Below, piece by piece: positions 2,713 through 19,575 of a stretch of 19,575 nucleotides of DNA. The stretch covers positions 1 through 19,575 of the forward strand of contig JBLIRP010000070.1 in NCBI GenBank assembly GCA_049472355.1, read 5' to 3'. The translations under genes and the position numbers were made by a program. The stretch's first letter is position 1. Each line of letters starts with the position of its first letter. This DNA is from a bacterium (GTDB lineage: Bacteria > SZUA-182 > DTGQ01 > JAFGSM01). The notes under the pieces were generated by a model that did no database searches, had not been told where the DNA came from, and saw only the letters and a list, made by a program, of their open reading frames with translations.

Positions 2713-3318
2713 TCAGGAACGTGGTGTTTCGATTTTCTTTACGAAGATGACCTTTGAATCCCCCGGGGAATAGAAATCCTTCAGGACCGCCTCCTTTTCA
2801 TACCCGTGTGCCTCATAGAACGACCGAGCCGGATGATACTGCTCCCGTGAGGAGGTCTCGATATAGATGCGCCTGCCCCCGCTCTCCTCGATAAGGAATT
2901 CCGTTTTTTCAAGAAGTCTTGTTCCAAGCCCCACCCGCCGGAGGTTTTTTTTCACCGCAATCCAATAGAGATCAAATCCACCGATGGTCCCTGGAATGGG
3001 CCCATAGCAGGTATATCCGGCAACCTCGCCATGGATCTCGGCAAAGAGGAAATGATACCCGCTGCGCACCCCCTCCCGCACCCCTTGATCAGCCAGTTCA
3101 AGGGCGATGTCCACCTCCGCCGGGGAAAAGACACCCGCCGATTCGACGATCTCCCGTATCCGCTCCCTGTCCTCAGGAAGGATGGCCGTGCGGAGTGTAA
3201 TCTTGTGCCCGTTGGTGAAGGTCTTTAGGGTATCCGTATGATCGTCCATGGTTACTGTGGTTCTCTCCATCTCATGACACCTGAAAAATGTGTTTATATC
3301 GACCCCTTCGTCGCTCAT
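2713..3318 (-). CDS. GNAT-family N-acetyltransferase
   Basis: Acetyl-CoA motif A (IAVKKNLRRVGLGTRLL) and ARSFYEAHGY. ATGA overlap with the upstream ligase stop indicates translational coupling. Confidence 0.9.
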   Translation of the reverse strand: MSDEGVDINTFFRCHEMERTTVTMDDHTDTLKTFTNGHKITLRTAILPEDRERIREIVESAGVFSPAEVDIALELADQGVREGVRSGYHFLFAEIHGEVAGYTCYGPIPGTIGGFDLYWIAVKKNLRRVGLGTRLLEKTEFLIEESGGRRIYIETSSREQYHPARSFYEAHGYEKEAVLKDFYSPGDSKVIFVKKIETPRS

Positions 3319-4304
3319 GATTGAACAGGGGTCGCGCGAATGATCCGGTCAACCACCTCGGTGTACCCAAGCCCTGCGCGCTCCGCTGCCGCCGTGAAAC
3401 CGGCATCGGGTGCAATGCATGGATTGGTGTTGATCTCCAGCACCCAGGGGATGCCCGTCCGGTCCACCCTGAAATCCACCCTGGCATATCCGCGCAGGCC
3501 GAATATGTCCCAGCACCGTGTGGCAATGCGCCCAAGCTCTTTGAGCAATGGTGCATCTTCGGGAGGAAACTCGAAACTGCGGATGGTATGGCGGTACTCG
3601 AAGGAGTCCTTCTCCCACTTTGCCCGATAGTCCACAATGGCGTGCTTCCCCTCGGGATAGTCCACAAAACGGATCTCTGCCGCGGGCAGCACATCGGGAC
3701 CATCCCCGTTTTCGAGAAGGGAGGTGTTGAATTCCCTTCCCTCGATGAAGACCTCGGCAAAACATTCCCCTCCGGTCTCCTCCAGGCGATGCCGGATCGT
3801 ATCGCCCGATGCGCCGTCCTCCCCGCATCGGACGATCGAGCGCTCATTCAACCCCTTTGATGCATGCTCCCAGACGGACTTGATGATGTAGGTGCGGCCA
3901 TCCGGAATGATCGCCGGCCCCGGGTACTCCTGGGTGATCCATTCCGGGGTTGCTATGCCCGATAGGGCGAGGACCCTCTTGGCAAGGAGTTTGTTCGAGC
4001 TCAAGAATATCGCCTCTGTCCGTGATCCGGTATAGGGGAGAGGCAGCACATCCAGGATCGCGGGCGCGGTGTGGATGAGTCGGCCCTGTCCGCTCACCGA
4101 TTCCACCAGGTTGAAGGCCATTTCTGCCTTGACCTCGCGCAGCCCCCTGATCGATTCCTCGCAGTTGAGGGAAAAGGGGAACAAAACGGGGATATGCCCC
4201 AAGTCGGTGAGTGCATCAAAAACAGCGCCGCACTGCACCAGGGTATCCTGTTCGTCCGCGGATGCACCCTCGGGAACCTGATCGTGCACTATGACAATAT
4301 TCAT
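3315..4304 (-). CDS. D-Ala-D-Ala-ligase-like ATP-grasp enzyme (second paralog)
   Basis: FNLVES, LPYTGS, IIKSVWEHASKG, EVFIEGREF, GYARVDFRV, LEINTNP. Start placed at MNIVIVHD (4304), 8 nt after the upstream stop. Confidence 0.88.
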   Translation of the reverse strand: MNIVIVHDQVPEGASADEQDTLVQCGAVFDALTDLGHIPVLFPFSLNCEESIRGLREVKAEMAFNLVESVSGQGRLIHTAPAILDVLPLPYTGSRTEAIFLSSNKLLAKRVLALSGIATPEWITQEYPGPAIIPDGRTYIIKSVWEHASKGLNERSIVRCGEDGASGDTIRHRLEETGGECFAEVFIEGREFNTSLLENGDGPDVLPAAEIRFVDYPEGKHAIVDYRAKWEKDSFEYRHTIRSFEFPPEDAPLLKELGRIATRCWDIFGLRGYARVDFRVDRTGIPWVLEINTNPCIAPDAGFTAAAERAGLGYTEVVDRIIRATPVQS

Positions 4305-4312
4305 AGAGCCCT

Positions 4313-5359
4313 TTACTGGGTCGAGCCCATGGGGATATCCGGACCGCCCGCGCCCCCGGCATCCTCCGTGATCAGTGTGGGCGCCCGATCCACCCTTTTC
4401 AGGGCCGATTGCATGATCGAGTCGATCAACCATCGAAAGGTCATGCCCTTCTTCCGGCAGAGTATGGGCAGGTCCGAGTGCTCAGGATTCAGCCCTGCCA
4501 AAGGATTCACCTCCAGTACGTGGGGAATGCCCCGGACGTCCGCCCTCAAATCGACCCGTCCCGCGTCCCGGCACCCGAATCCCTGCCAGACAGCCAGGGC
4601 CATCTGCCCCGCCCGCACCGCCATGGGATCATCAACCATCCGGTACTCCACCACATCCTCGTAGTGCTCCTTATTGAAAAAGGAATACGAACCTTGTTCC
4701 GCATTCTCCCCGAATATGATCTCCATTATCCCGATGACCTTCCCCTCCTTGCCGGTGCCGATGATTCCCGCGGTAAACTCCCTTCCGGGCAGATAGGTTT
4801 CAACGAGCACCGGCTGACGATATCGAGCGAGGAGTTCGTTGCACGCGGCAGCCAACGCACGCCGGTCATGAACCTTCGATGAGGCGCTGATACCCTTACC
4901 GGTGCCCTCGGCCACCGGTTTTACAAACAGGGGAAACGGGAGCCCCACCCGTGCCGCATCCGCCTCTGATGCCACAATGGCGAAGGCAGGGGTGGGTATG
5001 TCAAGATCCCTGATAACCCGCTTGCACATCCCCTTATGAAGGGTCAGGGAAAGCACCAGGGGATCCGAAAAGGTATAGGGAATGTCATATGCATCCAAAA
5101 GGCAGGGAACCTGGGCTTCACGGCCGAATCCCCTTACCCCTTCGGCGATATTGAAGACCAGATCCCACCGCTCGCCCCGAACAAGACGCCCCATGAGATT
5201 CTTTACATGTCCGATACGCTCGGTCTCGAAGCCTTCTTGCCGCAGTGCGCTCTCAATGGCGTCGATGGTCTCCGGCTTGTCAAACTCCGCCGTTTCTTCC
5301 ATGTCGTATCCCTCGGCGAGGTATTCCTCCCGAAGGTCATAGGTGATCCCGACAATCAT
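4313..5359 (-). CDS. D-Ala-D-Ala-ligase-like ATP-grasp enzyme (first paralog)
   Basis: FNIAEG, IPYTFSD, FVKPVAEGTGKGI, VETYLPGREFT, GRVDLR, LEVNPLAGL. It lacks the HGxxGEDG motif of canonical Ddl. Confidence 0.9.
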   Translation of the reverse strand: MIVGITYDLREEYLAEGYDMEETAEFDKPETIDAIESALRQEGFETERIGHVKNLMGRLVRGERWDLVFNIAEGVRGFGREAQVPCLLDAYDIPYTFSDPLVLSLTLHKGMCKRVIRDLDIPTPAFAIVASEADAARVGLPFPLFVKPVAEGTGKGISASSKVHDRRALAAACNELLARYRQPVLVETYLPGREFTAGIIGTGKEGKVIGIMEIIFGENAEQGSYSFFNKEHYEDVVEYRMVDDPMAVRAGQMALAVWQGFGCRDAGRVDLRADVRGIPHVLEVNPLAGLNPEHSDLPILCRKKGMTFRWLIDSIMQSALKRVDRAPTLITEDAGGAGGPDIPMGSTQ

Positions 5360-5438
5360 TGCATTTCCTCACGCCGACCACAGGGCCGGGCACCGGGATT
5401 CGATCAGCGAATCGATGCCGCCGCCTTCCATGGCCGCC

Positions 5439-5813
5439 TTATTCTTCCGGCGAAGGTTCAGTAACGTGCCCGCCTTCGTTCTCGTCATCCATTTCTTCCG
5501 GGTCCTGATAGCGCCCGTCGCCAGGCTCTCCTTCAAGGGGAAGGTATCTGAACATATCCTCGTCCTCCGATTCCACGGCAGGGGGCACAAACTGATTCTC
5601 CTCCATCTCCTCCCCTTCCTCGTGCAGGAGATACCAATCCTTGTCCTCCTGCTCCTCCATCTCCTTCGTATCTGCATACCGATAACCCGATGCAGCAGCC
5701 CTTGCAACAACCATAGGTGATTCCGCTTCCAGGGAGCCGGCAAGGGCATGTGAGCTGATACACACAAATCCAAGAAAACAAATGATGCCGAGCATCAGGA
5801 TTCTTCCTTTCAT
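5439..5813 (-). CDS. Secreted, highly acidic hypothetical protein (124 aa)
   Basis: Strong SD (AGAGGAGG) before ATG 5813 and a signal peptide MKGRILMLGIICFLGFVCISSHALA. About one third of the mature part is Asp/Glu. It is co-oriented inside the operon. Confidence 0.75.
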   Translation of the reverse strand: MKGRILMLGIICFLGFVCISSHALAGSLEAESPMVVARAAASGYRYADTKEMEEQEDKDWYLLHEEGEEMEENQFVPPAVESEDEDMFRYLPLEGEPGDGRYQDPEEMDDENEGGHVTEPSPEE

Positions 5814-5891
5814 TTCATCCCCTCCTCTAATGGAAACATGCATAGATTCACCCGGCAACGGGGCCGGGACTCCATAACTGACCAATTTTGC

Positions 5892-7211
5892 TCAAAGAGC
5901 CTGCTGACAGCGTGTGCCGGCGGTTCCGTCGCGGTCCGGATAACGGTAGGTGCGCCCCTCATAGTTCCGCAACACAAGATAGTCCCCCTCTTTCCCAAGG
6001 ACCGTCTCGGGGAAAAGGGGGATCTTCCCCCCGCCCCCCGGCGCATCGATGACGTAGGTGGGGACCCCATAGCCGCTGGTATGCCCGCGAAGCCCCATGA
6101 TAATATCGAGCCCCTTCTCCACCGGAGTTCGAAAGTGGCCGGAGCCTGGGACCGGATCGCATTGATAGAGATAATACGGCCTCACCCGGATCCTGAGCAG
6201 GCCGTGAACCAGTCCCTTCATGGTCTCCACCGTGTCATTGATGCCCGAGAGCAGGACGGTCTGGCTTCCCAAAGGAATCCCGGCATCCGCCAGACGCACG
6301 CATGCCTGTCCCATTTCCGGGGTAATCTCATCGGGATGGATTATATGGAGACTCATCCACAGCGGGTGATACCGCTTCAATGTCCGCACCAGTGAAGAGG
6401 TTATGCGTTGCGGCAACACCACCGGGACCTTTGTGCCGATTCTGAGCATCTCAACGTGCGGGATCCTGCGCAAACGATCGAGCAGCCATGCCAATCGCTC
6501 ATCAGGCAGGGTGAGGGGATCGCCGCCGGACAGCAGTACATCGCGAACCGAGGTATTCCGCTCGATATACGCGATGGCATCCCTCCAATGGGACAGATCG
6601 AAACGGGAACGGTCTCCGATGCCGATCATCCGGGAACGGGTGCAGTAGCGACAATACGTAGAGCACATGTTGGTTACCAGGAACAGCACCCGGTCCGGAT
6701 AGCGATGGACAATGCCGGGAACCGGACTGTGGCTGTCCTCTTTGAGAGGGTCATCCTCCTCCCCCGGACTCCTTATGAACTCCGCGTTTACCGGAATAAC
6801 ACAGCGCCGTATCGGGTGAAGGGGATCACAGGGATCGAGCAGGCTCGCGTAATAAGGGGTTATCTTCAAGGGGAGAGAGCCCTGGTGACGGTCGATTCCC
6901 TCTCGTTCAGCATCGGAAAGGCGTATGATCCGTTCCAGGGATGCCATGCTGGTGATGGAATGTCGAAGCTGCCACCGCCAGTTGTTCCATTCGGAGGCGC
7001 TCACATCGGGGAAAAACCGCCTGCGGAAACGGGAGGCGCGGTCATTTGCATCGAATGAATCAAGGCTATTGACCAGCCTGATCGGAGGGGAGGATAATGT
7101 TGTGGTATAAGGCCCGCCTTCGTCAGAAGTGGGCCTTATACCCGGAGGTTCGACTTCTTCTTGCACACACAGGGATTCCATTTGCCGAGAGACACACTCA
7201 TTTCTTTGCAT
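5892..7211 (-). CDS. kamA: KamA-family radical SAM/PLP 2,3-aminomutase (lysine 2,3-aminomutase-like)
   Basis: HRYPDRVL, CSTYCRYC (CxxxCxxC), LLSGGDPL, PYYLYQCD, GHTSG, and YVIDAPGGGGKIP containing the PLP lysine. Confidence 0.93.
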   Translation of the reverse strand: MQRNECVSRQMESLCVQEEVEPPGIRPTSDEGGPYTTTLSSPPIRLVNSLDSFDANDRASRFRRRFFPDVSASEWNNWRWQLRHSITSMASLERIIRLSDAEREGIDRHQGSLPLKITPYYASLLDPCDPLHPIRRCVIPVNAEFIRSPGEEDDPLKEDSHSPVPGIVHRYPDRVLFLVTNMCSTYCRYCTRSRMIGIGDRSRFDLSHWRDAIAYIERNTSVRDVLLSGGDPLTLPDERLAWLLDRLRRIPHVEMLRIGTKVPVVLPQRITSSLVRTLKRYHPLWMSLHIIHPDEITPEMGQACVRLADAGIPLGSQTVLLSGINDTVETMKGLVHGLLRIRVRPYYLYQCDPVPGSGHFRTPVEKGLDIIMGLRGHTSGYGVPTYVIDAPGGGGKIPLFPETVLGKEGDYLVLRNYEGRTYRYPDRDGTAGTRCQQAL

Positions 7212-7875: not shown

Positions 7876-9312
7876 CTATGCGGATGCATCCGATTTCACG
7901 GAGGACCTTTTGAACTCCTCTTTCCGGATGCCGTATTTGGATAAAAGCTTGTGGAGTTGGCGGGGGGTTATCCCCGCACTCTTTGCGGTGCAGTTGATTC
8001 TGCCTTCATTGAGGGCAAGGAGCTGTTTCAGGTAGCTCCGTTCGATGTTTTCAATGCCCCGCTGCCGGACCTCCGACAACCTGAGGGAGATATCCAGAGG
8101 GACCTGGGTCTGGGGGGTATCGAACACGAAAAGCTCGCTGGGAAAGCTTTCAGGGGTAAGGAAGGAAGAGGTTTCCAGGATATAGGCACGTTCGATAAGG
8201 TTTTCCAGCTCGCGGATATTTCCCGGCCAGGAATACGACACAAACGCCTCCATCACCTGGGGATGAAGATCGTTGATATTCTTCTGGTACAGCTTATTGA
8301 GGTTTCTCAAGAAGATCCCTACAAGCAGCGGCATATCCTCGATCCTCTCCCGCAGAGGGGGGATCTCAATGGGAAACACGTTGAGCCGGTAGAAGAGATC
8401 CTTGCGAAGGACCCCGTCAAGGCACATCTTCTGGAGATCCATGTTGGAGGCGGCGATGATCCTGACATCCGTCTCGATACTCTCCTCCCCGCCAACACGC
8501 TGGAATGTCCTGTCCTGGAGGACCTGAAGCAGCTTGATCTGTGTTGAGGCGGTAATGGTCCCGATCTCGTCCAGGAAGATCGTTCCCCCGTGGGCGATCT
8601 CGAATTTTCCCAGCTTCCTCTGAAAGGCGCCGGTAAAGGCCCCCTTTTCATGTCCGAACAGCTCGCTCTCGATCAGGGTATCGGGTATTGCACCGCAGTG
8701 GACGGAGATGAACTGATTGTCACATCGATTGCTGTGGCGATGGATGAGCTTTGCCAGCACCCCCTTCCCGGTGCCGGTCTCTCCGGTAATGAGCACGGTT
8801 GTTCGTGTGGGCGCCACCAGCTTCACCTTGTCAAAGACCTTCTTCATGGAAGGGGTGTTGGTGCGCACCACCGCGAGCGAATCATTCTGCCAGAACTTGT
8901 CTCGAAGGTAATCGAGCTCCGACTGAACCCGGATCGATTCATACAAGCTCTCGGTGATATATTTCACCTCTTCGGGATTTATGGGATAGGTGAGATAATT
9001 GCTGGCCCCTGCCTTCACCGCATTGACCAATTCCCTGATCATATCCTGGGAGGACATAACGATGATCTCGGCAATGGGGAACACCTGCCAGAAGGGCTGC
9101 AGCCGCTTTTTGTAATCGACGAGGCCGTTCTCCGTTTCCACGCCTCTAAGAAAAAAGATATCGATGAAGATGAATTCGTATCGCTTCTTGCGGATATCCT
9201 CCAGAGAAAAACCAGGGGTCGATATGACGTCGATCCGGTAGTCCGGGCCGAAGCAATTCCTGATCACGCTGCACGCCCTTTGGTTATCAGAGGCAACGAG
9301 AATGTACTTCAT
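7876..9312 (-). CDS. Sigma54-dependent enhancer-binding protein (NtrC family: receiver-like, AAA+, HTH)
   Basis: Walker A GETGTGKG, ESELFGHEKGAFTGA, FLDEIG, RIIAASN, DLFYRLNV, WPGNIRELEN, and a C-terminal Fis-type HTH. Confidence 0.95.
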   Translation of the reverse strand: MKYILVASDNQRACSVIRNCFGPDYRIDVISTPGFSLEDIRKKRYEFIFIDIFFLRGVETENGLVDYKKRLQPFWQVFPIAEIIVMSSQDMIRELVNAVKAGASNYLTYPINPEEVKYITESLYESIRVQSELDYLRDKFWQNDSLAVVRTNTPSMKKVFDKVKLVAPTRTTVLITGETGTGKGVLAKLIHRHSNRCDNQFISVHCGAIPDTLIESELFGHEKGAFTGAFQRKLGKFEIAHGGTIFLDEIGTITASTQIKLLQVLQDRTFQRVGGEESIETDVRIIAASNMDLQKMCLDGVLRKDLFYRLNVFPIEIPPLRERIEDMPLLVGIFLRNLNKLYQKNINDLHPQVMEAFVSYSWPGNIRELENLIERAYILETSSFLTPESFPSELFVFDTPQTQVPLDISLRLSEVRQRGIENIERSYLKQLLALNEGRINCTAKSAGITPRQLHKLLSKYGIRKEEFKRSSVKSDASA

Positions 9313-9585
9313 GAGATATCCCCTGTCACTTCCTCACCATTCAATATGCAGGGCATTACGAAAAATAACACCCACCTTATTGATCGCAGCACATTAGCAT
9401 ACCAGTAACAATAAAACAATATCGTACAGGTCATCCCTGCAATTCAAATTTCGATGTGCCGACACTCCGGTTCAACGTTGGAATTGCCAGGGACATCACA
9501 GCGGTCCCCTGTCAGGTTCATGCGGTCGCTTGTGAGAACCCTGCTGTTTTTCCTCCGCTCAACCTATTCCGCCAATGATCATATT

Positions 9586-10992
9586 TCATGCAAGGCTCAC
9601 CTCCTGGTTGTATGCGGCCACGGTGACCTCCCATCCGGTGCGCTCCCTTACCCCGGCAGCGAATGCCTCGGCTGCGTTTTCCTCCCCATGAATCACAAAC
9701 AGGTGCCGCGGAGGCCTTTTCAGTGCCGCCAGCCATTGAAGAAGTTCCTCCCGGTCCGCATGGGCGGAAAAGCCATTGATCTTTTCCACCCTCGCCTTCA
9801 CCTGTCGCTCCTCTCCCAGGATGCGAACGGATTCAGCGCCTTCCAGTATCTCCCGTCCGAGGGTTCCCCTGGCTTGGTATCCAACGAACAAAATTGCGCT
9901 CTCCGGCCGGCTGATGTTATTGATGAGATGATGCTTGATGCGACCGCCGGTGCACATGCCCGAGCCTGCAATAATTATCGCGGTGCCCCTGATATGGTTG
10001 ATCATTTTTGACTCGTCCACGGTACGGACCATGATCAGGCCGGGGAAGTCGCATGGATGCCGCCCCTTTTCTATCAAGGCGCGTGTTTCCTCGTCAAAGA
10101 GATCCCGGTGGCGGCCGAACACCTCCGTGACCCGGACGGCCATAGGACTGTCCACGAAAACCGGCAGGTGGGGAATGCGATCCTCTGCCAGAAGCCCGCT
10201 GAGCCTGTACAGCAGCTCCTGGGTCCGCTCCACGGCAAAACTGGGGATCACGATATTTCCTCCCGCCTGGTGGGTTTCGTTGACGATCCGGGCAAGTTCC
10301 CGCGATATGGTCTCCTGCCCTTGATGGAGCCTGTTTCCGTACGTTGACTCCACCAATACGTAGTCGGCGTGATGGAATGTCGCCGGATCCCGCAAGATGG
10401 GGGAATTCCGCCGTCCCACGTCTCCGGAAAAAAGGATGGTGATCTCCGTCCCCTTGAGGTTCATCTGCACCGTTATCATGGACGAACCCAGGATATGGCC
10501 GGCGTCGTGAAAGGTAACGCTCACAACCTTATTCAGGGCAACCGGGTGTTCATAGGCAACAGGGGTAAGGAACGGAAAAACGGATTCTGCGTCTTCCAGT
10601 GTATAGAGGGGGACCTCAGGGTGAGCCCCTTCCCTGCCCTCTCGCTGGTGACGCCTTTTTTTGGCTGCGGCATCCTCCTCCTGGATTGTGGCTGAATCCA
10701 TGAGCACAATCCGTGCGATATCCGCTGTGGCTGCGGTACACACAATTCTGCCATGAAATCCTTCACGGACCAATTTCGGAAGGAGTCCGCAATGATCAAG
10801 GTGGGCGTGGGTCAAACATACGGCATCCAGACCCTCGGGCGGGAAGGGAAAGGGCTCCCAGTTGCGATGCCGAAAATCCCTCTCCTGATAGAGGCCGCAA
10901 TCAACGATGAATCGCGTACCGTTTGCCTCCATATAGAAGCAGGAGCCGGTGACGTTCCGTGCCGCCCCCAGGAATCTGAGTCGTGTCTGCAT
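9586..10992 (-). CDS. Metallo-beta-lactamase beta-CASP family ribonuclease
   Basis: All motifs are present: VDCG, THAHLDH, AGHILGS, FSGD, VESTYG, FSAHAD, IHGE. SD AGAGGA lies upstream. Confidence 0.93.
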   Translation of the reverse strand: MQTRLRFLGAARNVTGSCFYMEANGTRFIVDCGLYQERDFRHRNWEPFPFPPEGLDAVCLTHAHLDHCGLLPKLVREGFHGRIVCTAATADIARIVLMDSATIQEEDAAAKKRRHQREGREGAHPEVPLYTLEDAESVFPFLTPVAYEHPVALNKVVSVTFHDAGHILGSSMITVQMNLKGTEITILFSGDVGRRNSPILRDPATFHHADYVLVESTYGNRLHQGQETISRELARIVNETHQAGGNIVIPSFAVERTQELLYRLSGLLAEDRIPHLPVFVDSPMAVRVTEVFGRHRDLFDEETRALIEKGRHPCDFPGLIMVRTVDESKMINHIRGTAIIIAGSGMCTGGRIKHHLINNISRPESAILFVGYQARGTLGREILEGAESVRILGEERQVKARVEKINGFSAHADREELLQWLAALKRPPRHLFVIHGEENAAEAFAAGVRERTGWEVTVAAYNQEVSLA

Positions 10993-11164: not shown

Positions 11165-12193
11165 TCAATTATCATAGGCATCCACATTGGTCATCACATC
11201 CAATTCCAGCGTCTCATCACACGGGACCGAAGGCTCGAACGACATGCTCTCCGCCTTGAAATTGCCCTCGAAATACTCCTGTGCCGTATCCGCCTCAAAT
11301 TTCTCTGAATCGGCGTCATCCACCGGAGCGATAACGGAGCGCAACATGACGATATTTATGGCCGCCACTCGGGTCAATTCCTCCCTGGCCCTGTAGATGA
11401 GTTTATAGCTCCCGGGCCTTAACACATAGATACAAGGTCTCGCCCTCTCATACGGTGGATAGTAGACATTCCAATGACATACATCCTGCCAATGCCATTC
11501 ATTATACTGGGCACTTGGATTGAATTCGTATCGGTCATGGGCGGTTTTGACCAAGTAAAAGTCCCCACTGTAATTTGTCGCAGGAAACGGAACACGCACA
11601 TCTCCCCTCTTGATCTCGACATAGAAGGAATCATGCCCGCAGTCTTTCGCCCAGACCAGGTTGCTTATCTTATAAATCCCCCATTGCGAAATCTTGAAGG
11701 AATAAATCGCCTCGGCATCCGTTTTCCTATCCGTGCATTTTACCAGCGAGGTGACATAGGCCTTTATATCCTTATAAACCCTTTTCCCGTCAAAATAATA
11801 GTTGTAGTTTTCAGCATATGGTGAGTCCTCTGCGTGAAACTTTACCATCATCTCCCCTGTTAATTCCCCATCCTCCGGCGCATTTATCCGGATAACCCTG
11901 GGGGCAACCTCAATGGGTTTTGGCTGTACCGGTTTGGGCTGTATGATCGTCGGCAAAATCTGTCCCACTGTGGTGCTGGTGACCGACCTGGACAAGGATG
12001 GCGTATAGTAGGGCATATATTGGTTGGTAAGGCTCAATTGAGGAACAACACCAACGGATAAATAAGGATACATCAGTTTTGAATAAAGGCTGTAGTCAAC
12101 CTGCGCATAACCAGTGGACACTGCAAAGGAAAGACTGATGCTTACCATAAGTATCAATATACAGAAAAAAAATTTGCTATTTTTGGAGTTCAT
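11165..12193 (-). CDS. Secreted hypothetical protein with a putative carbohydrate-binding-like beta-sandwich
   Basis: G-rich SD before ATG 12193 and a signal peptide ending STGYA-Q. A Tyr/Ser/Pro-rich linker is followed by a jelly-roll-type pattern (FHAED, GIYKI..VWA..HDSFYVEI, WHWQ, LRPGSYKLIYRARE) and an acidic tail. The domain call is by eye. Confidence 0.75.
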   Translation of the reverse strand: MNSKNSKFFFCILILMVSISLSFAVSTGYAQVDYSLYSKLMYPYLSVGVVPQLSLTNQYMPYYTPSLSRSVTSTTVGQILPTIIQPKPVQPKPIEVAPRVIRINAPEDGELTGEMMVKFHAEDSPYAENYNYYFDGKRVYKDIKAYVTSLVKCTDRKTDAEAIYSFKISQWGIYKISNLVWAKDCGHDSFYVEIKRGDVRVPFPATNYSGDFYLVKTAHDRYEFNPSAQYNEWHWQDVCHWNVYYPPYERARPCIYVLRPGSYKLIYRAREELTRVAAINIVMLRSVIAPVDDADSEKFEADTAQEYFEGNFKAESMSFEPSVPCDETLELDVMTNVDAYDN

Positions 12194-12240
12194 CTTGTAT
12201 CCCCCCTGAAACAAATAAGAGATTAAACATTCTTCCATTA

Positions 12241-12895: not shown

Positions 12896-13510
12896 ATGAC
12901 TCTCCATAATACACATACTTCCGATACGGAGCTTCTCGGTGAGTGCCTGAGGGGCAAGGAATGGGCATGGGAACTATTCTATGAACGATTCTCACGGCTC
13001 GTTTCTTCGGTGGTGAAAAGGGCGGCCTCACGATATGCATCCGTTTCAACCGCAGAGGAGATAAACGATTGCACACAGTTTGTCTGGGCTTCCTTTATAG
13101 AAAAGGAGTGTTATATATTAAAAAAATGGGGGGGGAAATGTTCGCTTGCCACCTGGCTCAGGGTGTGTGGCAGCCATGCTGCATCCGGATATTTCAAATC
13201 GATGGCCAAACAGATCCATACAATCCCTGTCGACGAGATCCCTCCCATGTCCGTATCGGTCAACGTCAATACACCACACAATACATTTGATGCGGTAAGC
13301 AGGAATGAAATGCTCGAAAAGATCCTGTGGATCGTTGAAAACAGGTTGTCCAAGCAAGAGAGGCTCTTTGCGAAACTGTACTGGTTCAAGAAACTCTCTT
13401 TTGACGAAATCTCCAAAATCCTGGGCATCTCCCTGGAAAATGCACATCTTCTGAAACACAGGGCTGAAAAGAAGATAATGAGGTATATGAAAACTGTAAG
13501 GAATAATTGA
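12896..13510 (+). CDS. ECF-type sigma-70 family RNA polymerase sigma factor
   Basis: Region 2-like (AWELFYERFSRLV...EINDCTQFVW...SLATWLRV) and region 4 HTH (LSKQERLFAKLYWFKKLSFDEISKILGISLENAHLLKHRA). An alternative GTG start is at 12854. Confidence 0.88.
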   Translation: MTLHNTHTSDTELLGECLRGKEWAWELFYERFSRLVSSVVKRAASRYASVSTAEEINDCTQFVWASFIEKECYILKKWGGKCSLATWLRVCGSHAASGYFKSMAKQIHTIPVDEIPPMSVSVNVNTPHNTFDAVSRNEMLEKILWIVENRLSKQERLFAKLYWFKKLSFDEISKILGISLENAHLLKHRAEKKIMRYMKTVRNN

Positions 13511-13581
13511 TTTTTTATCTCTATATACTACAAAGGCGGGGTTAGATCCGCGATGGAACTTCTTATTACAGGGGATTCACC

Positions 13582-14325
13582 ATGAAGGATGACGATTTTG
13601 ACGATCTGATGTACCAGGCATTTGCCAGGGAGGAAAAGCCGGGGATGGACCCGGGACAAGACCGGAAGGATAGACACGAGTGTCTCTCCGACGAGACCAT
13701 CTCCCTGTATCTGGAATCCCTTCTTTCGGATGCCGAACGGGACAGGGTGCAAGAGCATCTTTTCTCCTGTCCCTTTTGTCTTGAATTGGTCATTGATGTC
13801 GTCGAATCGGAGGCATTGGAACGGCAGGAGATATCCAGGGTGCGGGGAAGAATGGAATTGGAGCACACGGCAAAAACGGGTCTTGCCGACGTGATAGGTG
13901 CGGTTATAAAACCCTTGCGGATTTCCCTGGCCTGGGTTGGAGGGCATCTCACGATAAAGGAAACGGATGCCGAGTGTATCCCCTTTTGGAATGAATTGAG
14001 GCCCGTCCTGGTGCGAGGTGGCTCCAATAAAAAGGCCCTCTCCCTGCCCCCCTTTTCAAAATCCTTTGAAGACTATATGGTCAAGGTCCGTATCATGGAA
14101 GAGGAGGAAGGGAAGTGCGCCATTCAATGCGAGGTCGTTCCATTGTCTGAAACAAAAGAACGTGGACGAATCAAGGTTGAGTTGATGAAGGCCGGTCGCA
14201 TGCTTCGTTCCTTTCTCCTTGAGGATGATTCCCTTCAATTCCAGGGAATCTCTAAGGGTGAATATGCGATCAACATTCGCGATGATAACCAATTGATCGG
14301 TGATATATCCGTACAAATAGAATAG
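13582..14325 (+). CDS. Soluble zinc-finger (zf-HC2/ZAS) anti-sigma factor with a C-terminal beta-sandwich
   Basis: CLSDETISLYL...EHLFSCPFC (HxxxCxxC) directly after the ECF gene. No TM helix is visible. The C-terminus FQGISKGEYAINI is typical of Ig/prealbumin-like folds. Confidence 0.85.
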   Translation: MKDDDFDDLMYQAFAREEKPGMDPGQDRKDRHECLSDETISLYLESLLSDAERDRVQEHLFSCPFCLELVIDVVESEALERQEISRVRGRMELEHTAKTGLADVIGAVIKPLRISLAWVGGHLTIKETDAECIPFWNELRPVLVRGGSNKKALSLPPFSKSFEDYMVKVRIMEEEEGKCAIQCEVVPLSETKERGRIKVELMKAGRMLRSFLLEDDSLQFQGISKGEYAINIRDDNQLIGDISVQIE

Positions 14326-14338
14326 AAGGTAGAGTGCT

Positions 14339-16393
14339 ATGAGCCGTTCCGATCCCCCCAAAAAGGACCAAGCAGGCACGATTATCGATCTCAAGATCCT
14401 GCATGAAGCACCGGGCCAAAAACTCAGTCTGTTTTTCGAGGAAAAAAGGAAGGGTGAGGAAGGCCCCCTTCAATCCTACATCAATACCAATGTTTCTCCC
14501 TGCGGCCTCAAGTCCATCTCCGATGAGATATATTCCCTCCTGTATGCCTCCACCTATTCCTCGGAACATGGCGCGGGGAATATCACAAAAAAATTGCAGC
14601 AGGCCGGCCTGGATCTCTATAATTCCATATTCCCCCTGCCGATCAAGAAAAGGCTGGCTGCTGCCGGCTCCACAAACCTCTACCTGACCATCAGCGAATC
14701 CCTTCTCCATATCCCCTGGGAGCTTGCCTATGACGGCGAGGCATTTTTGTGCCTGCGGTTCAATATGGGCAGGAAGGTCTACACCTCGCATCAGGTAGTC
14801 GGCTACAAGGCCCCGGAATGCCAGAGAATCAGGATGTTGATCCTTGCGGACCCCAAGAACGACCTGCCGAAATCCTATCAGGAGGGGATCCTCCTTCATA
14901 AGAAACTGGAAAACTGGGGGGACCTTCTGGATGTGAATATCGTTACCACATCTATAGATTCAAAGATGGTCTCCCGCCAGATCTTTGAATACGATATCCT
15001 GCATTATGCAGGTCATGCCGTATACAATCAGGATAATCCGGATATGAGCGGCTGGGTGCTTGAAGACGGCACTTTAAGCGCTCAAAGGATCATGCAACTG
15101 GCAGGATGCAAGAAACCGCTCCCCGGCCTGATATTCTCGAATGCCTGCCAGAGCGGGCAGACCTCGGAATGGTCCAAGACCGATCAAAAGAATTGGAGCC
15201 ACTACTATGCCTATGACCTGGTAAACGCCTTTCTGCGCTCAGGCGTGCAGCATTATATCGGTACATTCCAGGAGGTGCGGGATCTGTCCAGCCTCTCCCT
15301 GGGACTCCACTTTTACGAATCAATGGCCCAATCCTGCAGTATCGGCGAGGCCCTTCGCAAGGCACGCATGCGGTTCATACGGGGATGCGAAGAACATGGC
15401 AAAGACAACCTCATATGGGCCCATTACATGCTCTATGGAGACCCCACCATCCACTATTTCAACAATATTCAAGCGCACCGGGAAACTGGAAAAGGGGAAT
15501 ACATACGCGAGATAAGGGAGCAAAACCGTGCTGATGAGCTCTTAGTAGGGTCTCCCGGCCTTGCCGGGGACGATACACGGGCAAAGGGCTCATCAGGAGC
15601 GACCTCCGCCCGAACCGGGGATGAGGCATTCGAATCCGCCGATCATAGGGGCACAAGAGCGGCGAAAGGTATCCATATGTCCAAGAAATGGGGGAAATGG
15701 GTTGCCCTGGGCATTATCGCAGGCATGGTCCTTTCCCTTTTTTTCATGAAATTTCGGGAACGGCCGGCAATGGAACATGCCGGTGGGGTTCACAGATATA
15801 CGGACCTTGAGTGGGAGGAAAAAAAGTGGGAAATCGTTGAACGAATCATGGAGGGCATGAGACAGGGATACAGGCCGGGGGACTCAGATACGGCCAGGAA
15901 TGCGCCTCTCTCCGGATCCTCTTCCATTGCCCCCGCTCACTACACGCTGTGCATTATCCCGTCCGATCCTGTTATAAAGGATACGGACACGGAGCTCCTG
16001 GTGGAAGAACTGCTCACCTTTTTTGAACAACAGCCGGACTATATCGTGGTGGAAAGGGAGCGGCTCGATTTTGTGATCAGGGAGCTTGCCTTGAAGACAC
16101 TGAACCTCACCGAAGACAAGCTCCGGTTTTCCTTGGGGGCGATCTTCGATGCCCGTGGAATCCTGTTTGTAAAGGTATTCGAACTCCCTCATCGTCTTCC
16201 CCGGTTGACCCACAGGAAGGAGGCGTTCCTTCGTTTGGTGGACACGAAGACGACGGCCATAACAGCTCGGGCCGCGGATTATCTCGACCCGTATGATATA
16301 AAGGGTGCGGCTGGACACCTTGGCGAACAACTCATCGCATCCTTGGAGAAGAGGATGAAAGACGGTACGGGCAATGATGGACAGGCCAAGTGA
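14339..16393 (+). CDS. Membrane-anchored CHAT (caspase-like) protease with a C-terminal CsgG-like domain
   Basis: CHAT motifs LHIPWEL, LILADP, ILHYAGH (His226), FSNACQSG (Cys270), AFLRSGV, FY...IGEALRKAR, WAHYMLYGDP. A single TM helix lies at about aa 454-470, followed by YIVVERERLDFVIRELAL...LRLVDTKT. Confidence 0.88.
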   Translation: MSRSDPPKKDQAGTIIDLKILHEAPGQKLSLFFEEKRKGEEGPLQSYINTNVSPCGLKSISDEIYSLLYASTYSSEHGAGNITKKLQQAGLDLYNSIFPLPIKKRLAAAGSTNLYLTISESLLHIPWELAYDGEAFLCLRFNMGRKVYTSHQVVGYKAPECQRIRMLILADPKNDLPKSYQEGILLHKKLENWGDLLDVNIVTTSIDSKMVSRQIFEYDILHYAGHAVYNQDNPDMSGWVLEDGTLSAQRIMQLAGCKKPLPGLIFSNACQSGQTSEWSKTDQKNWSHYYAYDLVNAFLRSGVQHYIGTFQEVRDLSSLSLGLHFYESMAQSCSIGEALRKARMRFIRGCEEHGKDNLIWAHYMLYGDPTIHYFNNIQAHRETGKGEYIREIREQNRADELLVGSPGLAGDDTRAKGSSGATSARTGDEAFESADHRGTRAAKGIHMSKKWGKWVALGIIAGMVLSLFFMKFRERPAMEHAGGVHRYTDLEWEEKKWEIVERIMEGMRQGYRPGDSDTARNAPLSGSSSIAPAHYTLCIIPSDPVIKDTDTELLVEELLTFFEQQPDYIVVERERLDFVIRELALKTLNLTEDKLRFSLGAIFDARGILFVKVFELPHRLPRLTHRKEAFLRLVDTKTTAITARAADYLDPYDIKGAAGHLGEQLIASLEKRMKDGTGNDGQAK

Positions 16394-18518
16394 CTACTCC
16401 AAAGAGTATATCCGTATCCTTGTTCTTTTCATCCTCCTTCTCTCGGGCTGTGCCGTAGCTGAGCGCTCACCCTGCCTGCACGAAGCTCCCCCCCCTGAGT
16501 GCATGCGCCGTTATGACTGGGAGTGCTGTTATCGAAGCGGCCTTGCCTATGCCCGAGGCGGGTGTTTGGATAAGGCGATAGCGGAGCTTCGCTCCGCCAT
16601 GACGCAAAATCCAAAGGACAGATGGAGGACCAGGACATATGGCATGCACTTCCTGGATTATTTCCCGCACAGGGAACTGGGGATCATCTACCTCAGCCAG
16701 GGACGCATCAGGGAGGCCATGGATGAGCTGTCGCAATCCCTGGCATCGGCGGACTCCGCCAGGGCAACCTATTACCTCAACCAGGCACGGAGACAGTGGC
16801 TGGAAGAAACAGGGCTCGATACCACGCCGCCCTCCATCCTCATTGCCAGTAGGGTTGATGACGAGCATACCGCACTCTACACCTCTCAATCCACGTATAT
16901 AATAGAGGGAGAGGCACGGGATGACTATTTTGTATCCGCAATCACCATACACGGTGAACCGCTGTTCGTGGATCTGGCGCGGCCTGCCGTTCCATTCAGG
17001 AGGGAGGTTTCCCTGAGCCCGGGAGAGAACATACTGCATTGCGAGGTGTCCGACCTCGCAGGCAACCGTGCCGTCACCCGCCTTCGGGTCATCCTGGACC
17101 AGCAAGGCCCGATCGTCATGGTTGCACCGGTTTCCCATGAGGATATTTCCCAGGGGGCCGGGTGCATCATGACCGTGGTAAGGGGAATCGTCTACGATTC
17201 ATCGGGAATAGGGAAGTTCGTCGTGGATGATGAGGAAGTACCCATCATCCATGATGGAAATATTCAGGAATTTGAAACAAGGGTCCCTTGTTACTCACCG
17301 GTAACCTTCTGCGCGTGGGACCGGGCAGGAAATGCCACCACAGGCACCCTGGGTCCCCTATGGGAGCCCCCGAAGGATGCCTCACCTGCTCCATCTGGGG
17401 AGATCAGGGTATGTGCGAGCCGCATCCTGCCTCTTCTTGCGAAGGGGGATACGGACGGCCCAATAATCCATGTGGAGCCCTGCCCGTCTATGGTTTTTGA
17501 ACCCTTTGTGGTGATCACCGGATGGGTGGAGTCACCCAGGGAGATCCTCAATGTGTGGATCAATGAAGAATCAATCCTGTCAAGGGATGAGTCCGAGGCA
17601 CTGATCCCCCGTTTCCGCAGGCTCTTCCATAGGTATCGTTCGTACCTGGTGGGAGACAGGATTCGTTTCTCATTTACCCGCACCATCCCCCTCACGGAAG
17701 AGGGGAAAAACCTGATCACCATTTACGCGCAGGACAGCGAGAACATCTCCCCCCTGCAGAAGGTTCGGGTTGAGTATAGGGTCTCGGAGATACAAAAAAT
17801 CGGGAGACGGTGGGCCATGGCAATCCTGCCCTTTGATATCGTCAAGGAGGGTGAGGTGCCCATTTTTGCACCGCCTGCACAGGGCTCGATCGCGTACATC
17901 ACGGAGAAGCTCCAGGCATCCCTTTTTGATACCGGACGCTTCAGGATTCTGGAACGGGAAAGGATCGATGCGGTCATGCACGAATTGAACCTTTCCTACG
18001 GGTGCAGGATTGATCCGAATACGGCCCTGAATATAGGAAAGGCCGTAGGCGCCGAGATACTGCTTGCCGGGTCCTTCTATGAACACTGGGAGGGACAAAA
18101 CCGCTGCCTGGAGATCTATGCCCGGCTGATCGATGTGGAGACCCAGGAGATAGTAGGTATACAGAACCTCTACAACCATTGGAGGGAATCGGGGGATATT
18201 GATTTCGTGTCAAAGGGCCTGTCACAGCGGTTTGTCGAGGAGTTCCCCCTGGCGCAGGGCGAAATTGAGGAGATCTACGACGAGACCTTTGTGATAGACC
18301 TGGGCACGGAGGATCGCATCAAGAGAGGAATGCGGCTGTGGGTATACCGGCCCAAGAAGGAGAAACAGGGAATCACGAAGGCACTGCACGCCGGAGACGT
18401 CCGGATAATCGGTGAAGGAAGGATAGAGGAGGTATCCGGGGGAGGAGCTGTTGTGCTGCCGGCTCAGAAGGGGATGCTGCATGGCTTCAGGGTAGGAGAC
18501 CGCGTGATTACGAAATGA
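16374..18518 (+). CDS. Lipoprotein with TPR, Ig-like repeats, CsgG-like and FlgT C-terminal-like domains
   Basis: Lipobox LLSG-C26. TPR-like helices around RTYGMHFLDYFPHRELGIIYL. Ig-like units (DTTPPSI...LSPGEN...SDLAGN; AWDRAGN; EGKNLITIYAQD). CsgG-like region AILPF...FRILERERIDAVMHELNL...IGKAVGAEILLAGS...ARLIDVET. C-terminal IDLGTEDRIKRGM...VGDRV. It overlaps the CHAT gene by 20 bp. Confidence 0.85.
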   Translation: MMDRPSDYSKEYIRILVLFILLLSGCAVAERSPCLHEAPPPECMRRYDWECCYRSGLAYARGGCLDKAIAELRSAMTQNPKDRWRTRTYGMHFLDYFPHRELGIIYLSQGRIREAMDELSQSLASADSARATYYLNQARRQWLEETGLDTTPPSILIASRVDDEHTALYTSQSTYIIEGEARDDYFVSAITIHGEPLFVDLARPAVPFRREVSLSPGENILHCEVSDLAGNRAVTRLRVILDQQGPIVMVAPVSHEDISQGAGCIMTVVRGIVYDSSGIGKFVVDDEEVPIIHDGNIQEFETRVPCYSPVTFCAWDRAGNATTGTLGPLWEPPKDASPAPSGEIRVCASRILPLLAKGDTDGPIIHVEPCPSMVFEPFVVITGWVESPREILNVWINEESILSRDESEALIPRFRRLFHRYRSYLVGDRIRFSFTRTIPLTEEGKNLITIYAQDSENISPLQKVRVEYRVSEIQKIGRRWAMAILPFDIVKEGEVPIFAPPAQGSIAYITEKLQASLFDTGRFRILERERIDAVMHELNLSYGCRIDPNTALNIGKAVGAEILLAGSFYEHWEGQNRCLEIYARLIDVETQEIVGIQNLYNHWRESGDIDFVSKGLSQRFVEEFPLAQGEIEEIYDETFVIDLGTEDRIKRGMRLWVYRPKKEKQGITKALHAGDVRIIGEGRIEEVSGGGAVVLPAQKGMLHGFRVGDRVITK

Positions 18519-18582
18519 TCGAGTTTTGTGAAGGATCATGGTTATTGATTCGCTCCGGCCTAACGGAGTTTGGTTGAACAAA

Positions 18583-18658
18583 TGAAACGCCCATGAGCCT
18601 GATGAAACTGCGAATGTAGAATGTAGAATGTAGAATGTAGAAGTGAAACGCCCATGAG
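18583..18658. repeat. 7-bp tandem repeat (GAATGTA x4.4) flanked by 15-bp direct repeats
   Basis: TGAAACGCCCATGAG occurs at 18583-18597 and 18644-18658. The GAATGTA array spans 18612-18642. Confidence 0.9.
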
Positions 18659-18735
18659 ACTTCGGCTCACAAGGAAACATGAAAATGCCGGATAGGGATT
18701 TTCAGGTGAAATGTTTAAATGACCATACGATTACG

Positions 18736-19575
18736 ATGCGTTGTAGATATGGTCTTCATATCGTCATTGTGATGACCCTGTCGTTCGCCATCCTTCTAGT
18801 GCCTCGGGCAGCAACGGCCCAGGAGCCGATAACTCCCGTGAGCGGTTCTGTTCGGCCCGTTACACGATTCTCACAAATTGACGAGGCAGAACCTGCCAAC
18901 ATCGATCCAAAGGTTGCAGACCGATATGAACCGGACAATATCACCGACGAGGCCAAACCCGTTGCCGTTCAGATAGACACGGGTAGGGTTCTCAAACAGG
19001 TCCGCACATTTCATTCCGAAACCGACAGGGACTGGATATACTTTTACGGGTTAAAACAGTTTCAGTACTATTTTTATATAGAGGTTTTCACAGAAGGGGA
19101 TGAAAGCGTGCGCATGTCCCTGTTCGATGCAACAGGGGTGGATGCGGTATGGCGCGACCAGGTCATCAAAAATGCCTCCCACTGCTGGGAATGCCCACGA
19201 AACGGTCACTTCACCCTGCAGCTTGAGCCTGTATTCACTCCCGCCTCACCATCCCCCACGGATGGGAATGCATTCACCTACAGGTTTTGGATGAAGGGGG
19301 TTCCTCCGGCGCCGATAACGCTATCGGGAGGTGTGTACGGCCGCGTCATAAACCAGGATGGAAACGGGATCAACAGGGTACATATATCACTCAAAAATGG
19401 CGGGGAGATACGAGAAGATATGACGGATAGTATAGGGGAATTATGGGAAATCCCCCTTGAACCGTCAAAAATCGATGGATGGTTCTTCATTGACGGACTG
19501 TATGCGGACAGCTCATATGAATTGCTTGTGACAACGGAAGAGGACCCCAACAACTATCTGGTACCCCCCTTTACG
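18736..19575 (+). CDS. Secreted protein with PPC-like and CarboxypepD_reg-like domains (3' partial)
   Basis: Absent from the ORF track because it has no stop in the window. Frame 1 is open to the end: MRCRYGLHIVIVMTLSFAILLVPRAATA-QEP, then DRYEPDN...QVRTFHSETDRDWIYF, then GGVYGRVINQDGNGINRV...DGWFFIDGL...YELLV. In-frame alternative starts are at 18679, 18685 and 18706. Confidence 0.8.
   Translation, partial: MRCRYGLHIVIVMTLSFAILLVPRAATAQEPITPVSGSVRPVTRFSQIDEAEPANIDPKVADRYEPDNITDEAKPVAVQIDTGRVLKQVRTFHSETDRDWIYFYGLKQFQYYFYIEVFTEGDESVRMSLFDATGVDAVWRDQVIKNASHCWECPRNGHFTLQLEPVFTPASPSPTDGNAFTYRFWMKGVPPAPITLSGGVYGRVINQDGNGINRVHISLKNGGEIREDMTDSIGELWEIPLEPSKIDGWFFIDGLYADSSYELLVTTEEDPNNYLVPPFT

Follow-up and report, generated by a model that had tools for sequence, protein, structure and literature searches.

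How could a change in the cell envelope set free a sigma factor when the anti-sigma factor that holds it is a soluble protein? This question is raised by a group of co-oriented genes on a 19,575-nt stretch of DNA (hereafter the window), which is the whole of contig JBLIRP010000070.1 (our C117) in the 87.5% complete genome of a bacterium of the GTDB lineage SZUA-182; DTGQ01; JAFGSM01 (assembly GCA_049472355.1). The genes encode a sigma factor of the extracytoplasmic function (ECF) type, a zinc-binding anti-sigma (ZAS) factor, a CHAT-domain protease with a single transmembrane (TM) helix and a lipoprotein. Judging from their sequences, we propose that they probably form a protease-gated ECF sigma pathway spanning the envelope, in which the protease would cut the anti-sigma factor after one arginine. 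The anatomy of the proteins, the gene order, the invariance of that arginine, the enrichment of its motif in protease linkers and a promoter motif are direct observations.

An initial annotation of the window had described four co-oriented genes with gaps of 71 and 13 nt and then a 20-bp overlap, and checking the open reading frames (ORFs) returned exactly this arrangement (Table 1); the sigma ORF is taken from an ATG at 12896, the longest ORF beginning at GTG 12854. The second product combines a CHCC zinc domain (C34, H59, C63, C66), a beta-hairpin, a loop carrying Arg145 and a C-terminal sandwich resembling immunoglobulin (Ig) or fibronectin type III (FnIII) domains. The zf-HC2 domain that the annotation had proposed to confirm was matched above cut-off (E 1.5e-6), the (C/H)-x-HxxxCxxC signature of ZAS proteins is present and PF13490 is matched by 76/80 family members. 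Just as annotated, the protein has no TM helix, its maximum 19-residue hydropathy being 1.44, with none above 1.5. Considering its ZAS domain and the gene order, we infer that it binds and holds the adjacent sigma factor.

Conservation of this anti-sigma factor is concentrated on very few residues. In a first set of 33 sequences, the invariant columns were C34, C63, C66, R145, L201 and Y228. A second set of 57 sequences came from loci found via their CHAT gene, and four partial sequences were dropped to leave 53; the arginine column was invariant in 53/53 of these full-length held-out proteins aligned de novo, and 46/57 lined up with the R145 column when the second set was added to the first alignment. 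Once all 80 anti-sigma factors were merged, most of them about 20% identical to that of the window, only C66 and R145 were still invariant. The context of the arginine is a hydrophobic residue, Arg, then Gly or Ser, with a PVRG consensus. An AlphaFold2 model (mean pLDDT, the predicted local distance difference test score, 75.9; pTM, the predicted template modelling score, 0.52) places R145 in an unstructured loop between the beta-hairpin and the C-terminal beta-sandwich. Fold searches with this model gave generic Ig/FnIII matches only (best Z 7.5), with no CalpT or Csx30 chain among the matches listed, though a fold in common with these may still exist. CarboxypepD_reg was weakly matched by 6/80 anti-sigma factors, and no phage match was found for the protein. 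Partial or fused relatives were also seen: genes of 133 aa, whose match is confined to the C-terminal half of the anti-sigma factor, precede cyclase-fused CHATs at L056:709-1107 (+) and L060:9013-9411 (-), and two cassettes include one gene more, of some 400 aa (L073:7714-8946 (+) and L077:4660-5856 (+)), which in L073 joins a part similar to a zf-HC2 anti-sigma factor to a sigma domain.

If this arginine is a cleavage site, the candidate protease is the product of the next gene. The PF12770 check suggested in the annotation gave a clear match (E 5.6e-30, 105.2 bits vs a cut-off of 24, residues 90-368), and the His226/Cys270 dyad, reported as intact, is present and invariant in 80/80 relatives, as expected for a CHAT protease of clan CD. 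Acidic residues are conserved too (D171 in 77/80, D175 in 73/80 and E182 in 80/80) and are candidates for an S1 residue like Asp2151, the acid that binds the P1 arginine in separase (PMC10317155). A domain of about 85 aa precedes CHAT. In the PDB, one CHAT protein, 8tl0, was matched weakly by sequence (E 2.7e-4), and a search with one relative returned nothing useful; 11 plasmid matches were found for the CHAT domain. The outer domain had been called CsgG-like, and the fold part of that claim stands, as the ESM Atlas places it in the CsgG/LpoB/TolB_N fold (features 0.94; TM-score 0.60 over 529-684) and hhalign aligns it with the CsgG domain of the lipoprotein (99.6%, 131 columns), although Pfam CsgG gave no direct match.

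The topology of the protease was judged by hydropathy and charge only. By hydropathy, the window's protein has no signal-like segment before its CHAT domain and a single hydrophobic segment after it, in line with the one TM helix claimed. Among 111 relatives, a hydrophobic stretch precedes CHAT in 2 and a TM helix follows it in 99, the other 12 being truncated, just below cut-off or without a helix; Lys and Arg are richer on the CHAT side of the helix in 70 of these 99 CHATs, equal in 14 and poorer in 15. Given this bias and the cyclase and kinase fusions, the CHAT domain is likely cytoplasmic, as the annotation had predicted for this intact domain.

The arginine motif also occurs in the protease itself. 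The pattern [VIALT]-R-[GS] was found in 33/93 CHAT-to-TM linkers (shuffle mean 10.7, maximum 21) and in 18/53 cyclase-to-CHAT linkers (shuffle mean 5.8, maximum 13), both enrichments exceeding all 1,000 shuffles, vs 1/99 stretches of equal length after the TM helix (shuffle mean 6.5). The Lys version of the motif was not enriched in the linkers. Since the motif is present in cytoplasmic linkers and nearly absent past the helix, the pattern is most simply accounted for by an Arg-specific protease that would work on the cytoplasmic side only. Together, the invariance of Arg145 and the linker enrichment give the cleavage idea a specific predicted site.

Co-occurrence of the four genes in other genomes, on which the annotation had staked its proposal, was surveyed in gene neighbourhoods. 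Two further complete cassettes are present in the host genome (C73 and C138), and the full sigma-anti-sigma-CHAT-lipoprotein order was found in 21/47 CHAT rows from the host and relatives, the window counted. A metagenome scan confirmed 471 relatives, from which 78 loci were kept: the anti-sigma gene lies immediately upstream of CHAT in 52/66 loci with a 400-nt flank, and sigma and anti-sigma genes lie upstream in 36/47 with a 1,700-nt flank. Within the class of the host, 15/20 genomes gave full-length anti-sigma matches, compared with 8/381 of those sampled outside it; the anti-sigma profile matched 151/401 genomes, most of them by the zinc domain only, which we did not count as family. At E 1e-30 or better, the profile retrieved 193 cluster representatives, and 12 of the best 150 of these 193 are long repeat proteins that match by the C-terminal domain only. 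Atlas clusters resembling the anti-sigma factor come most often from Omnitrophota, Myxococcota and Armatimonadota; Nitrospirota and Pseudomonadota are among the names that databases give for CHAT relatives, and 10 relatives looked up by cluster yielded no cultured host. Two distant cassettes, at L217:4900-9118 (-) and L227:3387-7693 (+), unite a sigma factor, a zinc anti-sigma factor whose loop has V-R, and a soluble tetratricopeptide repeat (TPR) CHAT of another clade; this suggests that cytoplasmic CHATs use the same substrate design too.

What would the released sigma factor transcribe? The motif TGTAAGAA-N14-CGTCTATT is present in 77/86 sigma/anti-sigma intergenic regions vs 0-3 in shuffles, having been trained on the same set. 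When it was trained on 44 metagenome loci, 20/42 others passed vs 2 antisense, and the window's site at 13495 passed; only 5/81 regions upstream of sigma genes carry the motif. Considering the ECF-like form and the position of this promoter, we infer that it is read by the adjacent sigma factor. In the host, upstream regions scoring at least 13 numbered 19 in sense vs 4 in antisense, a scan that cannot tell three paralogous sigma factors apart, and signal-peptide-like proteins lie downstream of 11/19 sense sites vs 533/1947 in the background, a count that rests on crude gene calls and a hydropathy rule. One RNA run gave 0.11 of the words and 20 short, shallow contigs; contigs cannot show transcription and we conclude nothing from them.

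Around the constant sigma/anti-sigma/CHAT core, the other parts vary among relatives. The C-termini of the protease include CsgG-fold, DUF4384, TPR, kinase and trypsin domains, and an adenylate cyclase is fused N-terminal to CHAT in 51/78 metagenome loci, its first metal-binding Asp motif being kept in 64/65 and GDxVNxAxR in 49/65. The fourth gene of the cassette encodes a multidomain lipoprotein, as annotated, with a CsgG match (E 1.8e-7) and no match in a PDB sequence search. We compared 111 non-redundant CHATs (from 130), among which 78 are complete with a CsgG-type outer domain and 17 have other C-termini: the lipoprotein is encoded nearby for 54/78 CsgG-type CHATs vs 0/17 of the others (37/45 vs 0/5 when only wide-flank loci are counted), and a FadL-like barrel for 35/78 vs 0/17. 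This barrel is similar to the PorV and BamG families, below cut-off, and adjoins large secreted proteins. Downstream of several cassettes, genes for secreted proteins of very large size, with a Peptidase C13 domain and LVIVD repeats, were also seen (L080:2317-9891 (-), L063 and L078).

Table 1. Coordinates of the genes, domains and sites of the window (residue numbers refer to the protein named).
Feature	Position	Strand	Details
ECF-type sigma factor, 204 aa	12896..13510	+	TIGR02937 E 5.7e-17, above cut-off; Sigma70_r4
Predicted ECF promoter	13495..13525	+	-35 TGTAAG 13495-13500, -10 TCTCTAT 13518-13524; precedes anti-sigma, CHAT and lipoprotein genes
Soluble anti-sigma factor, 247 aa	13582..14325	+	zf-HC2; no TM helix; AlphaFold2 model; fold searches
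Arg145 codon, predicted P1 of cut site (PVLVR↓GGS)	14014..14016	+	invariance; unstructured loop in model
Single-pass CHAT protease, 684 aa	14339..16393	+	family scans, hydropathy, ESM Atlas, hhalign
CHAT domain of protease			residues 90-368; His226 codon 15014, Cys270 codon 15146
Linker T-R-A motifs of protease			at Arg414 and Arg440
TM helix of protease	15698-15754		residues ~454-472
Outer CsgG/LpoB-fold domain of protease			residues 529-684
Lipoprotein, 714 aa	16374..18518	+	lipobox LSG-C26, TPR, Ig-like repeats, C-terminal CsgG-fold domain
Secreted protein encoded by fifth co-oriented gene	18685..19575	+	gene cut by contig end
Divergent secreted-type protein, no known family	11165..12238	-	no Pfam/NCBIfam match

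The pathway that we propose would operate as follows. In the resting state, the soluble zinc anti-sigma factor would hold the sigma factor, and the CHAT protease, as predicted from its sequence, would be anchored in the inner membrane, its catalytic domain facing the cytoplasm. A periplasmic change may then activate the protease through its own CsgG-fold domain and probably also through the homologous domain of the lipoprotein. As conservation suggests, the protease would cut the anti-sigma factor after Arg145, between the zinc and Ig-like domains, and probably also its own linkers at the same motif. The sigma-bound fragment would be cleared and the sigma factor freed, which, going by the promoter motif, would transcribe the anti-sigma/protease/lipoprotein operon in a feedback loop, together with genes of large secreted or surface proteins. 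A more ambitious version, which we regard as rather unlikely, is that of a bacterial receptor caspase: the CsgG-fold domains of protease and lipoprotein would co-assemble as an oligomer in the periplasm, coupled to the FadL/PorV-like barrel of the outer membrane, and this assembly would cluster and activate the caspase-like domains on the cytoplasmic side, which would cut the Arg motif in the anti-sigma factor, in their own tether and, in many relatives, in the fused cyclase. If this were true, one surface signal would give both sigma and cyclic AMP outputs without TonB or an intramembrane protease.

Several observations weigh against a protease-gated pathway of this kind. Because the zinc domain would survive a cut at residue 145 intact, it would have to be degraded in a second step. 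The positive-inside bias is modest, the linker pattern was derived from the anti-sigma alignment after some linkers had been seen, and the loci surveyed are akin rather than independent samples. A raw genome-wide promoter scan gave 74 hits vs 114 in the reversed genome, which is not above control. The lipoprotein is present in just 35/78 metagenome loci, and as its gene follows the promoter predicted to depend on the sigma factor, it may be an output. When 16 anti-sigma loci were fetched by their own match, 9 adjoined a CHAT gene (one a cyclase-bearing start at a contig end and two the TPR-CHATs of another clade), 1 was at a contig edge and 6 had no adjacent CHAT gene. Since the genomes of these 6 hold other family members and 5 of the loci keep the arginine (by eye), they fit cleavage in trans and also a looser link. 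Conversely, no anti-sigma gene was found nearby for 20/93 CHATs with at least 1 kb upstream; 14 of these 20 carry a cyclase.

These observations leave room for other readings, the nearest of which accepts the cut at Arg145 and makes the lipoprotein and the barrel outputs of the sigma regulon, serving to export or anchor surface proteins, with a protease that is constitutive or obeys an unrelated cue. All the downstream genes do lie behind the predicted promoter, the barrel, which is PorV/BamG-like below cut-off, adjoins large secreted proteins, and the soluble CHAT domain of the cyanobacterial protease HetF is described as active without its TM and periplasmic parts (PMC9457339). A mere regulon member need not, however, share a domain with the protease and track the type of its outer domain, as the lipoprotein does (54/78 vs 0/17), and the lipoprotein remains with cyclase-fused CHATs that lack sigma genes, which makes this reading unlikely in our eyes. 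A pseudosubstrate role for the Arg145 loop would be quite improbable: as bait or docking site, it would let the anti-sigma-like protein inhibit or tether the protease, whose main substrates would be its own linkers or other proteins, and the sigma factor would be freed by partner switching with the anti-sigma factor uncut. Clan CD proteases do have pseudosubstrate inhibitors, such as securin (PMC10317155) and PCi (10.1101/2023.06.23.546230), and the linkers of the protease itself are rich in the motif. Securin, however, is described as inhibiting by replacement of the P1 Arg (PMC10317155), which is invariant here, and HetF cuts its inhibitor at an Arg (PMC9457339).

A role as an anti-phage or conflict system, on the lines of Craspase, CalpL/T/S, DdvA/DdvS or the proposed EACC2 systems, deserves consideration as well, since most CHAT/sigma pairs characterised in the sources consulted serve in defence, and the several copies per genome and the variable C-terminal domains would fit such systems (PMC8195603); envelope damage would then switch on a defence regulon. 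This is very unlikely, as PADLOC gave no match for the four proteins, cas1 was not found in the 87.5% complete host genome and no array is among the repeats listed for the window, all in keeping with the CRISPR-independent context that had been claimed; moreover, orthologous loci retain the same housekeeping neighbours and the predicted targets are secreted proteins. We give the least credence to an ordinary redox- or zinc-sensing ZAS/sigma pair with the CHAT gene as just a co-transcribed target. The weak match of the anti-sigma factor to the RsrA model (E 0.022) and the 6/16 loci without an adjacent CHAT would suit it, but it leaves the invariant arginine and its recurrence in CHAT linkers unexplained, and even the distant anti-sigma factors of L217 and L227, which adjoin CHATs of another clade, keep the V-R motif.

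Is a membrane protease that gates an ECF sigma factor without precedent? The initial annotation knew of no characterised system with such an architecture, a claim that does not survive comparison with HetF of Anabaena sp. PCC 7120. HetF has the same layout of CHAT, TM helix and periplasmic domain (TPRs in its case) and cuts PatU3 between R117 and S118 (PMC9457339), and HetZ is reported to be an ECF sigma factor that is inhibited by PatU3 and activates patU (PMC13342950); the HetF-PatU3-HetZ chain is joined here from these two papers, the main text of the latter not mentioning HetF. Both systems are CRISPR-free, with a CHAT domain that is cytoplasmic (in our case by prediction), one TM helix and a periplasmic domain, and in both, by analogy, a soluble inhibitor with an Arg site would block an adjacent ECF sigma factor that drives the inhibitor gene. 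The CHAT domains are homologous (hhalign 98.9%), and a conserved Arg is present at the matching site of the inhibitor linker in 27/28 PatU sequences. The window's protease differs from HetF in its CsgG-fold rather than TPR outer domain and falls in a separate CHAT clade; its sigma factor is an ordinary one of 204 aa; and here protease, lipoprotein and barrel share the operon of the sigma factor. We rejected HetF orthology. The NCBIfam HetF model gave no match at E 0.1, cyanobacterial HetF-like proteins scoring 726-911 bits; a 42-row tree sets the protease in its own group apart from HetF and cyanobacterial EACC2-type proteins, with weak support (92/67); and hhalign of the anti-sigma factor with PatU gave a probability of 0.2-0.3%, within the shuffled range, though the two may still have a fold in common. 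By analogy, then, the system would work like HetF-PatU3-HetZ, in which HetF cuts PatU3 after an Arg and PatU3 inhibits an ECF sigma factor, without membership in that pathway, since it misses the HetF model, has its own tree group and has an anti-sigma factor without PatU similarity.

The architecture had also been foreseen in 2021, when systems of a caspase, a TM segment and a variable sensor with an ECF sigma factor were predicted (PMC8195603). These EACC2-caspase/ECF sigma/DUF1822 systems, a computational prediction only (Kaur et al. 2021, PMC8195603), likewise combine a constant N-terminal domain and a caspase with variable C-termini (TM, extracellular sensors, kinase, trypsin) and a neighbouring ECF sigma gene; for these, the authors proposed activation by an autopeptidase, not anti-sigma cleavage. 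With cyanobacterial loci called EACC2 by gene order, not by the alignment of PMC8195603, the CHAT domain is homologous (97.6%), and the profile match of the N-terminal domain is weak (1-5.5%). The difference lies in a ZAS anti-sigma factor in place of DUF1822: PF08852 was unmatched in the host genome and in 80 anti-sigma factors, and the global alignment of the anti-sigma factor with DUF1822 is weak (13.3, where none of 40 shuffles exceeded 5.5; probability 1.5%). Both share a conserved Arg ahead of a C-terminal beta-rich domain, and cyanobacterial DUF1822 proteins (L200-L211, L270-L297) have a conserved F-R-S/G or A-R-G just before it; DUF1822 proteins may be unrecognised CHAT-cleaved anti-sigma factors. 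An earlier survey, from 2012, had pointed out metacaspases that are cytoplasmic and carry extracellular receptor domains, as well as sigma factors in the operons of metacaspases (PMC3501461).

Other CHAT/sigma systems resemble the cassette in part. DdvA/DdvS of Myxococcus xanthus shares an ECF sigma factor, a CHCC zinc anti-sigma domain, CHAT and an envelope pathway (PMC11506125), but DdvA is a single TM protein with a periplasmic CHAT and uses RseP, whereas the anti-sigma factor here is soluble and separate and CHAT is predicted to be cytoplasmic. A DdvA-type anti-sigma factor was ruled out, the anti-sigma factor having no TM helix and CHAT being a separate protein in which it lies N-terminal to its own TM helix. 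In type III-E Csx29-Csx30-CASP-sigma, CHAT cuts a soluble two-domain inhibitor and leaves its sigma-binding part intact, as it would here by analogy, and CASP-sigma regulates its own locus, but Csx29 is a soluble TPR-CHAT activated by Cas7-11 and RNA, without a membrane step; Csx30 cleavage has also been discussed as needing a further release step (PMC10028731). A type III-E Craspase was rejected on the absence of Csx29 or Csx30 model matches, added to those of PADLOC and cas1. Of the CHAT-sigma-inhibitor precedents invoked in the annotation, the SAVED-CHAT system, which like Csx29 is driven by CRISPR, is a loose one, as there PCaspase cuts the sigma factor itself and SAVED-CHAT cuts neither the sigma factor nor PCi (10.1101/2023.06.23.546230). 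Finally, actinobacterial ECF54 has an ECF sigma factor, a carboxypeptidase-regulatory-like protein at +1 and CHAT nearby; it differs in its subtilase and TPR-CHAT, is described there without an anti-sigma factor, as an uncharacterised group, and has a published promoter, GTATCAG/CTCC, that differs from the one predicted here (PMC7826278).

The remainder of the window sets the cassette in its context. In the two closest long orthologous loci, the counterpart of the fifth gene is followed by one further secreted protein and then a barrel-type gene; the rest of the operon, including the barrel, was not found elsewhere in the host assembly. An outer membrane is likely, as the host genome has four matches to Omp85. 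The divergent gene at 11165..12238 is kept next to the cassette in one close relative (69.7% identity to the cassette-adjoining gene in L001); the promoter motif has no match upstream of it (score 4.9), and it may or may not belong to the system. Four GAATGTA-type heptamers flanked by a 26-nt direct repeat lie between lipoprotein and fifth gene (18575-18661). At the contig start, a repetitive low-complexity Pro/Thr/Ala-rich ORF with imperfect repeats (28-582, +) is similar in wording to the beginning of one of the top promoter targets predicted, on G000:C102. It is followed by a membrane protein of 620 aa (789-2651, -) that has no Pfam match and an N-terminal part of coiled-coil type, for which the PADLOC LmuB match is weak and limited to the coiled coil. 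Next comes a cluster (2713-7211, -) that encodes a lysine 2,3-aminomutase, a GNAT acetyltransferase and two ATP-grasp proteins resembling D-Ala-D-Ala ligase, and whose product may be a small molecule containing beta-lysine. A sigma-54-type response regulator and a beta-CASP metallo-beta-lactamase (7876-10992, -) are ordinary neighbours.

Full-text searches, whose reach leaves out most subscription journals, listed no paper on a soluble ZAS anti-sigma factor combined with a membrane CHAT, a CsgG-fold lipoprotein and a barrel. The logic is already known from the cyanobacterial pathway, and the parts and the outer-envelope partners are undescribed; what the locus adds is the link between outer domain and lipoprotein, the topology-controlled linker motif, the cyclase variant and a predicted secreted-protein regulon. 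We know of no activator of HetF-type membrane CHAT proteases. With the proposed pathway, sigma release gated by a caspase-like protease would no longer be confined to CRISPR loci and the development of cyanobacteria but would extend to a compact family that is encoded in operons and occurs in several bacterial lineages, and it offers specifics in a predicted cut site, catalytic residues, a promoter and a likely periplasmic partner. With its swappable outer domains and built-in sigma reporter, this family would make the question of how CHAT is activated a testable one in a laboratory strain, and it could serve as a modular signalling part.

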